Source: Escherichia coli (GTDB lineage: Bacteria; Pseudomonadota; Gammaproteobacteria; Enterobacterales; Enterobacteriaceae). Taken from it: a DNA stretch of 64,000 nucleotides. Position numbers and translations under genes: made by a program. The notes under the pieces are model-generated. The model was not told the origin of the DNA. It did not search any database and saw only the letters and a list, made by a program, of their open reading frames with translations. The stretch's first letter is position 1, and each line of letters begins with the position of its first letter. The stretch lies in assembly GCF_051903065.1 (NCBI RefSeq), contig NZ_CP178438.1. The stretch is one strand, 5' to 3'. This document shows positions 9,883 through 10,170 of the stretch, piece by piece.

Positions 9883-9967
9883 TGGTGGTGGGGGAAGGAT
9901 TCGAACCTTCGAAGTCGATGACGGCAGATTTACAGTCTGCTCCCTTTGGCCGCTCGGGAACCCCACC
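9883..9967 (-). tRNA. tyrV: tRNA-Tyr (GUA), promoter-distal copy
   Basis: 85-nt exact reverse complement of GGTGGGGTTCCCGAGCGGCCAAAGGGAGCAGACTGTAAATCTGCCGTCATCGACTTCGAAGGTTCGAATCCTTCCCCCACCACCA. Confidence 0.95.
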
Positions 9968-10001
9968 AGGGGTAATTCAAATTTCGAGGTAATGCTTGAG
10001 A

Positions 10002-10086
10002 TGGTGGTGGGGGAAGGATTCGAACCTTCGAAGTCGATGACGGCAGATTTACAGTCTGCTCCCTTTGGCCGCTCGGGAACCCCACC
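10002..10086 (-). tRNA. tyrT: tRNA-Tyr (GUA), promoter-proximal copy
   Basis: Second identical 85-nt tRNA-Tyr, 34 bp upstream (in transcript orientation) of the first copy. Confidence 0.95.
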
Positions 10087-10129
10087 ACGGGGTAATGCTT
10101 TTTACTGGCCTGCTCCCTTATCGGGAAGC

Positions 10130-10170
10130 GGGGCGCATCATATCAAATGACGCGCCGCTGTAAAGTGTTA
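10130..10170 (-). promoter_or_regulatory. tyrT promoter
   Basis: Minus-strand -35 TTTACA (10159-10164) and -10 TATGAT (10137-10142) with 16-bp spacer; GC-rich discriminator; predicted start about 43 nt upstream of the mature tRNA 5' end; matches the classic tyrT promoter sequence. Confidence 0.8.

Follow-up and report, generated by a model that had tools for sequence, protein, structure and literature searches.

Two tRNA-Tyr genes separated by only 34 bp are found in the 64-kb stretch of Escherichia coli DNA analyzed here (the window). From the sequence alone, this arrangement had been read as a contracted form of the tyrT-tyrV locus, provided that the K-12 spacer measures about 200 bp, and in keeping with an apparent reduction of the trailer repeats. 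The question raised is whether the spacer was indeed shortened, by which step, and whether such a contraction is peculiar to this strain. The operon, its promoter, its repeats and their tendency to recombine are classic knowledge. The repeats of the tyrT operon were reportedly described by Egan and Landy in 1978 and by Rossi et al. in 1981, the operon's loss of one gene by unequal recombination is said to go back to Russell et al. in 1970, and the rtT RNA reportedly to Bösl and Kersten in 1991. A literature search for a paper describing the short-spacer allele or its distribution returned none. RtT is not mentioned in the current version of PMC10542128, and PMC3318445 cites Bösl and Kersten (1991).

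Identity and layout of the locus

The 661 bases around the tRNA-Tyr genes matched E. coli chromosomes and were 100% identical in three RefSeq genomes. In the annotation of the 100% identical RefSeq locus, the order is narJ, narI, RtT sRNA, tRNA-Tyr, tRNA-Tyr, purU and ychJ, placing the operon between purU and narI on the chromosome. Over the entire window, exactly two tRNA genes were detected by ARAGORN, both tRNA-Tyr (anticodon GTA) and both on the minus strand, in agreement with the Rfam tRNA model (53.4 bits per gene). Each gene is 85 nt long, and the two are identical to each other and to K-12 tyrT and tyrV. A repeat search of the window returned a 92-nt direct repeat at 119-nt spacing, which cannot be chance. 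With both genes in minus orientation, a point left unstated in the sequence-only reading, the promoter is located at higher coordinates and the promoter-proximal gene is the higher-coordinate copy (Table 1). The locus is an ordinary E. coli tyrT-tyrV operon in its short-spacer form and as such is well understood. Weak Rfam matches near the locus to tmRNA and STnc100 (E = 0.15-0.8, far under the gathering scores) were discarded as tRNA-like noise.

Table 1. Features of the tyrT-tyrV locus, in coordinates of the 64-kb window
Feature	Position	Strand	Basis
tyrT promoter	10137..10164	-	promoter scan, 10/12 consensus matches
GC-rich discriminator GCGCCCC and 5′ leader	10087..10136	-	sequence reading; identical to K-12
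Promoter-proximal tRNA-Tyr(GUA), tyrT equivalent (gene 1)	10002..10086	-	ARAGORN, Rfam tRNA, identity to K-12 tyrT
20-nt direct repeat AATCCTTCCCCCACCACCAT, 3′ end of gene 1	10001..10020	-	repeat search
Intergenic spacer, 34 nt	9968..10001	-	sequence UCUCAAGCAUUACCUCGAAAUUUGAAUUACCCCU
Distal tRNA-Tyr(GUA), tyrV equivalent (gene 2)	9883..9967	-	ARAGORN, Rfam tRNA, identity to gene 1
Single trailer repeat unit, R-type RtT, 170 nt	9713..9882	-	Rfam RF00391; K-12 alignment

The promoter is composed of a -35 element TTTACA (10164-10159), a 16-bp spacer, a TG preceding the -10 element, and a -10 element TATGAT (10142-10137). By pairwise alignment it is 100% identical to the K-12 tyrT promoter, and the same holds for the entire purU-tyrT intergenic region, identity running from purU through the first tRNA. 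The discriminator occupies 10136-10130 and is followed by a 43-nt 5′ leader (10129-10087); by analogy with the K-12 operon, transcription would start at G 10129. The sequence-only reading had described two identical 85-nt genes with a 34-bp spacer behind a near-consensus promoter with a GC-rich discriminator, and this description was confirmed in each of its parts, coordinates included.

Comparison with the K-12 operon

In MG1655, the tyrT-tyrV spacer measures 209 bp, in line with the value assumed in the sequence-only reading, and consists of a 175-bp RtT-like unit, here called S, followed by the same 34 bp. The spacer of the window has its homologues in the final 34 nt of the K-12 spacer, with one A/G difference, and in the 22-37 nt spacers of 49 other Enterobacteriaceae loci. 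It serves both as 3′ trailer of gene 1 and as 5′ leader of gene 2. The K-12-type (S+) allele is defined by a 209-bp spacer containing S; with its 34-bp spacer, the window is S-minus (S-), and no remnant of S was found anywhere in it. All tested defining features of a tyrT-tyrV operon with RtT are present, the K-12-specific 209-bp spacer being the sole exception.

Pairwise alignment with K-12 revealed that the window is without exactly S, the gap ending within the 20-bp direct repeat AATCCTTCCCCCACCACCAT. This repeat corresponds to 19 nt of the tRNA 3′ end plus a T, and further copies are located at 9882-9901 and 9712-9731. In K-12, a 20-nt identical run is shared by the 3′ end of tyrT and the 3′ end of S. 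The copy at the 3′ end of gene 1 in the window would, by this comparison, represent the deletion junction of the missing unit. Recombination or replication slippage between the repeats would remove exactly S and leave the 34-bp form.

Relative to the K-12 tyrT operon (tyrT-tyrV-rttR/tpr, b1231-b1229), the window is thus alike in its purU-narI position, promoter, leader, both tRNA genes, the 34-nt leader of the second gene (one base apart) and the type of trailer unit. It differs in lacking the 175-bp S, in having one trailer unit instead of three and an 8-nt deletion therein, in a tpr frame closed by TAA at codon 6, and in the absence of the ychS region.

Two short similarities between the leaders were observed in addition. 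A 13-nt sequence, AAGCATTACC(T/C)CG, occurs at 9985-9997 of the window, near the start of the spacer, and at 10088-10100, at the end of the tyrT 5′ leader, and ATTACCCC(G)T immediately precedes both tRNA genes. These shared stretches suggest that the original gene duplication took in part of the leader.

The trailer unit

The RtT model (RF00391) matched 9713-9836 on the minus strand with 118.9 bits against a gathering score of 45, spanning the full model (positions 1-130) and lying 3′ of tRNA-Tyr. The end of the trailer unit is a 19-nt copy of the tRNA 3′ end. No second RtT was returned by the Rfam search of the 64-kb window, so that the window carries one copy only; K-12 has three trailer units of 178 bp and the window is shorter by two such units. 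Compared with other E. coli, the unit of the window carries an 8-nt deletion (K-12 ...GCGCGCAGCGCTGAGTAATCC versus window ...GCGCTAGTAATCC). In the model alignment, positions 103-110 are missing, which are unpaired in the consensus structure of Rfam. Among 5,426 complete E. coli genomes, this deletion is shared by only three: ECNB21-M121, 23CRST027 and 23CRST031. It is the only lineage-specific feature of the locus in the window.

In the window, the frame of tpr, encoding a protamine-like protein, is closed at codon 6 (ATG AGA AGC TTC GAC TAA, 9795-9814, minus strand). This codon is CAA in K-12 unit 1, TAA in K-12 unit 2 and in strain 113, and CGG in E. albertii. The K-12 open reading frame ychS lies entirely within trailer units 2-3, both absent from the window. 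The closed tpr frame together with the absent ychS region argues against tpr and ychS as conserved genes.

Frequency of the short form in E. coli

Counting of both forms by the coverage of one long query was considered and set aside, as pieces joined across the repeats make the coverage ambiguous. Two diagnostic 64-nt queries served instead. A probe unique to S identified the K-12 form in 1,920 of the 5,426 complete genomes (35%), and a probe centered on the 34-bp leader matched in 4,782 of 5,426. The number of short doublets, taken as the difference between leader-probe and S-probe matches, is about 2,860 (approximately 53%), and the window therefore carries the majority allele; approximately 12% of the genomes have neither form. 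Evenly spaced samples of the rankings were in agreement with these shares, giving 33 short and 21 long forms in 60 rows, and 17 and 12, respectively, in a second sample of 30 rows. The short form is also present in O145:H28 strain RM13514 and in the GTDB E. coli representative. It is a form already known and routinely annotated in thousands of RefSeq genomes.

These counts also bear on the repetitive nature of the locus, which might lead one to regard the short spacer as an assembly artefact caused by a collapsed repeat. The first ~60 nt of S are unique sequence and not a collapsible repeat, however, the same structure recurs in complete genomes by the thousand and at 49 other loci of various species, and three assemblies made independently show 100% identity over 2.8 kb, so that the probability of an artefact can be regarded as practically nil. 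The short-spacer locus is real, fully explained and annotated in RefSeq already.

A second explanation, by which the contraction took place recently and only in the lineage of this strain, was weighed against the relationships among strains. Seven strains were compared on the purU side (1,150 sites). Here, the window (S-) and strain 113 (S+) are 4 differences apart, against 17-19 differences between the window and the remaining strains (17-18 for the other S- strains). A private event would agree with this proximity to an S+ strain over 1,150 nt, with the occurrence of the exact leader variant (G at position 17) in S+ genomes such as CP53, and with the finding of 100% identity over the locus in only three genomes. 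Yet among the genomes not identical to the window, the 42 nearest ones (98.5-99.0% identity over 2.8 kb) without exception combine the short spacer with a single RtT unit and are longer by 8-9 nt only, mostly the 8-nt RtT indel; moreover, the short form is found in about 2,860 genomes and the haplotype sample is small. Altogether, a private event is considered unlikely. For K-12 (S+), the closest strain on the purU side is CP53 (S+, 2 differences), followed by 00-3076 (S-, 8 differences), while on the narI side 00-3076 (S-) is the closest with 3 differences. Within this sample of seven strains, exchange of alleles by homologous recombination, rather than many deletions, could account for the interleaving of S+ and S- forms in E. 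coli.

The copy number of the trailer unit varies independently of S, since among strains the combinations S-/R1, S-/R5, S+/R1, S+/R2 and S+/R3 were all seen (R, number of trailer units). E. coli AR_0372 (L072) has a 34-bp spacer together with five trailer RtT units; this combination by itself separates spacer contraction from trailer copy number. The link drawn earlier between the short spacer and the reduced trailer stands as far as the two missing 178-bp units are concerned, but not as a coupling of both contractions.

An alternative downstream arrangement was noted as well. In the ST131 strain EC958 (L076), an example of a genome with neither form, and in Escherichia sp. MOD1-EC7003 (L050), the last tRNA-Tyr gene, in EC958 the single one, is directly followed by a different segment, which encodes proteins of the fatty-acid and sterol desaturase family, and no RtT unit is present. 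This arrangement is common to B2 E. coli and a cryptic Escherichia lineage.

At this locus, K-12 is a poor representative of its species. The 209-bp spacer, the three trailer repeats and the open reading frames tpr and ychS are each either specific to the strain or found in a minority. Where strains differ in length here, routine variation mediated by repeats is the appropriate reading, and nothing new is signalled by it.

Distribution in Enterobacteriaceae and age of S

Species-representative genomes were scanned for CCCCCACCACCA followed by the 5′ half of tRNA-Tyr 15-45 nt later, a pattern that fits both forms equally. This DNA pattern was preferred over a PurU-based genome scan for the outgroups and leaves out single-gene species. 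The scan returned 68 Enterobacteriaceae loci, 67 of which were classified, 49 as short and 18 as long; this ratio holds for the scan sample only, to which single-gene species and species whose spacer is unusual do not contribute. The short class has spacers of 22-37 bp (49 loci) and the long class of 202-214 bp (17 loci); in the one further long locus, that of Pseudocitrobacter vendiensis, the spacer measures 138 bp and S is internally deleted. Across species, homology was found between the short spacers and the final ~35 nt of the long ones. In Citrobacter sp. MGH106 (L054, 7057-7460), unequal exchange has enlarged the same array to three or four tRNA-Tyr genes in tandem, separated by 35-bp spacers of identical sequence.

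Copies of S were found in Escherichia (E. albertii), Citrobacter, Klebsiella, Kluyvera, Kosakonia, Lelliottia, Raoultella, Phytobacter and Pseudocitrobacter. Full-length copies are 78-96% identical to K-12 S, and only ~55% to the trailer units. S is therefore an old element with orthologues in about ten genera, and was not recently copied from a trailer unit. When the upstream 400 nt are compared, an S+ species often has an S- member of its own genus as its nearest neighbour, and both forms are interleaved within Citrobacter, Kluyvera, Kosakonia, Pseudocitrobacter and Escherichia. Given the presence of S in about ten genera and this interleaving, which is also seen on the flanking haplotypes of E. 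coli, the short form is best read as the recurrent deletion of an ancient unit. Such deletions, repeated over time, would have given the short form its present lead over the other forms, both within E. coli and family-wide.

Under the opposite polarity, the 34-bp form would be ancestral, and the K-12 form would have arisen when an RtT unit was inserted or duplicated into the spacer. In favour of this scheme, the short form predominates in E. coli and among the classified loci (49 of 67), and a route of two unequal exchanges that turns the short form into the long one is conceivable on paper. However, the ~55% identity of S to the trailer units, its first ~60 nt being wholly different, does not fit such an origin. 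In addition, the orthology of S in about ten genera, with divergence at the level of genera, calls for a single ancient origin, after which losses suffice, and a deletion takes one event between 20-bp repeats where the insertion takes several. An ancestral short form is therefore judged distinctly improbable. Very probably, the window holds the tyrT-tyrV operon in its S-minus allele, with S recurrently deleted through the 20-bp repeats and two tRNAs produced per transcript. The contraction proposed at the outset thus had the right polarity, S being ancient across genera, but it is not peculiar to this locus, the short form being in the majority. Likewise, alignment to reference strains, by which that proposal was to be judged, gave a divided answer: K-12 does not have the 34-bp spacer, and many others do, such as O145:H28 RM13514.

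The first ~60 nt of S are unrelated to the trailer RtT units (K-12 S, L001 1364-1538; also L003, L006, L014, L022, L025, L037, L038 and others). Two hairpins are predicted in this part, which lies outside the region that S shares with the trailer units. Between genera, compensatory changes occur in these hairpins at column pair 10/21 (CG:9 and UA:8) and at pair 30/58 (GC:14 and AU:3). Together with the S+/S- dimorphism of the family, these conserved 5′ hairpins of S make up a modest side observation outside the window. In view of the hairpins and of the conservation of S over about ten genera, one could imagine that presence or absence of S is a recurrent, selected toggle kept across the Enterobacteriaceae, beyond neutral decay, an option that appears very improbable. 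If true, S may encode a distinct processed RNA or a processing signal, and its loss would alter either the 3′ maturation of the first tRNA, by placing a different RNase E context behind CCA, or the RtT-like RNA output.

Transcription and processing

The A+T content of the spacer is 62%, its folding energy in isolation is predicted to be 0, and the promoter scan returned neither promoter-like nor terminator-like sites within it on the minus strand. Judging from these properties and from tRNA maturation in E. coli, both genes and the trailer would be co-transcribed from one promoter. The precursor expected from this strong promoter would comprise the 43-nt leader, tRNA-Tyr, the unstructured A+U-rich spacer of 34 nt, an identical tRNA-Tyr and one RtT unit. 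By analogy with other E. coli tRNA precursors, RNase P would cut at each tRNA 5′ end, and RNase E and/or 3′ exonucleases would remove the spacer and the trailer, yielding two copies of the same tRNA per transcript. Folding of the whole dicistronic precursor was uninformative on processing, as the identical genes cross-paired and no cloverleaves were formed, and the fold of the isolated spacer was used instead.

In polycistronic tRNA operons of E. coli, according to the abstracts of PMC2190699 and PMC2241853, tRNAs lie apart by a few tens of unstructured nucleotides and are freed by RNase P and RNase E. The locus would resemble short-spacer operons such as valV-valW, metT and glyVXY in giving several tRNAs per transcript and in its A+U-rich, apparently unstructured 34-nt spacer, and differs from them in that its two genes are identical copies. 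For K-12 tyrT, RNase E cleavage just after CCA is listed in Table 3 of PMC2241853, with UAAUUC as a high-efficiency site. With the loss of S, the sequence after the first CCA is changed: UAAUUC follows in K-12 and UCUCAAGC in the window, the latter being the context that follows S in K-12.

Other features

Between narI and the RtT unit, a narI intrinsic terminator (stem and T-run, plus strand; 9548-9569) and a REP-like palindromic element (9590-9660) were observed in the window; both are present in K-12 too. Elsewhere in the window, matches at the level of the Rfam gathering scores were obtained for the STnc180 sRNA (57202-57404, plus strand, 197.9 bits) and the trp operon leader (44662-44755, minus strand, 93.1 bits). 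In the E. coli genome searches, matches to the locus also occurred on plasmid-classed records, at 31 and 12 places. One of these, a 187-kb record of the O145 strain RM9154-C1, contains RtT, two tRNA-Tyr genes and purU and looks like a chromosome fragment.
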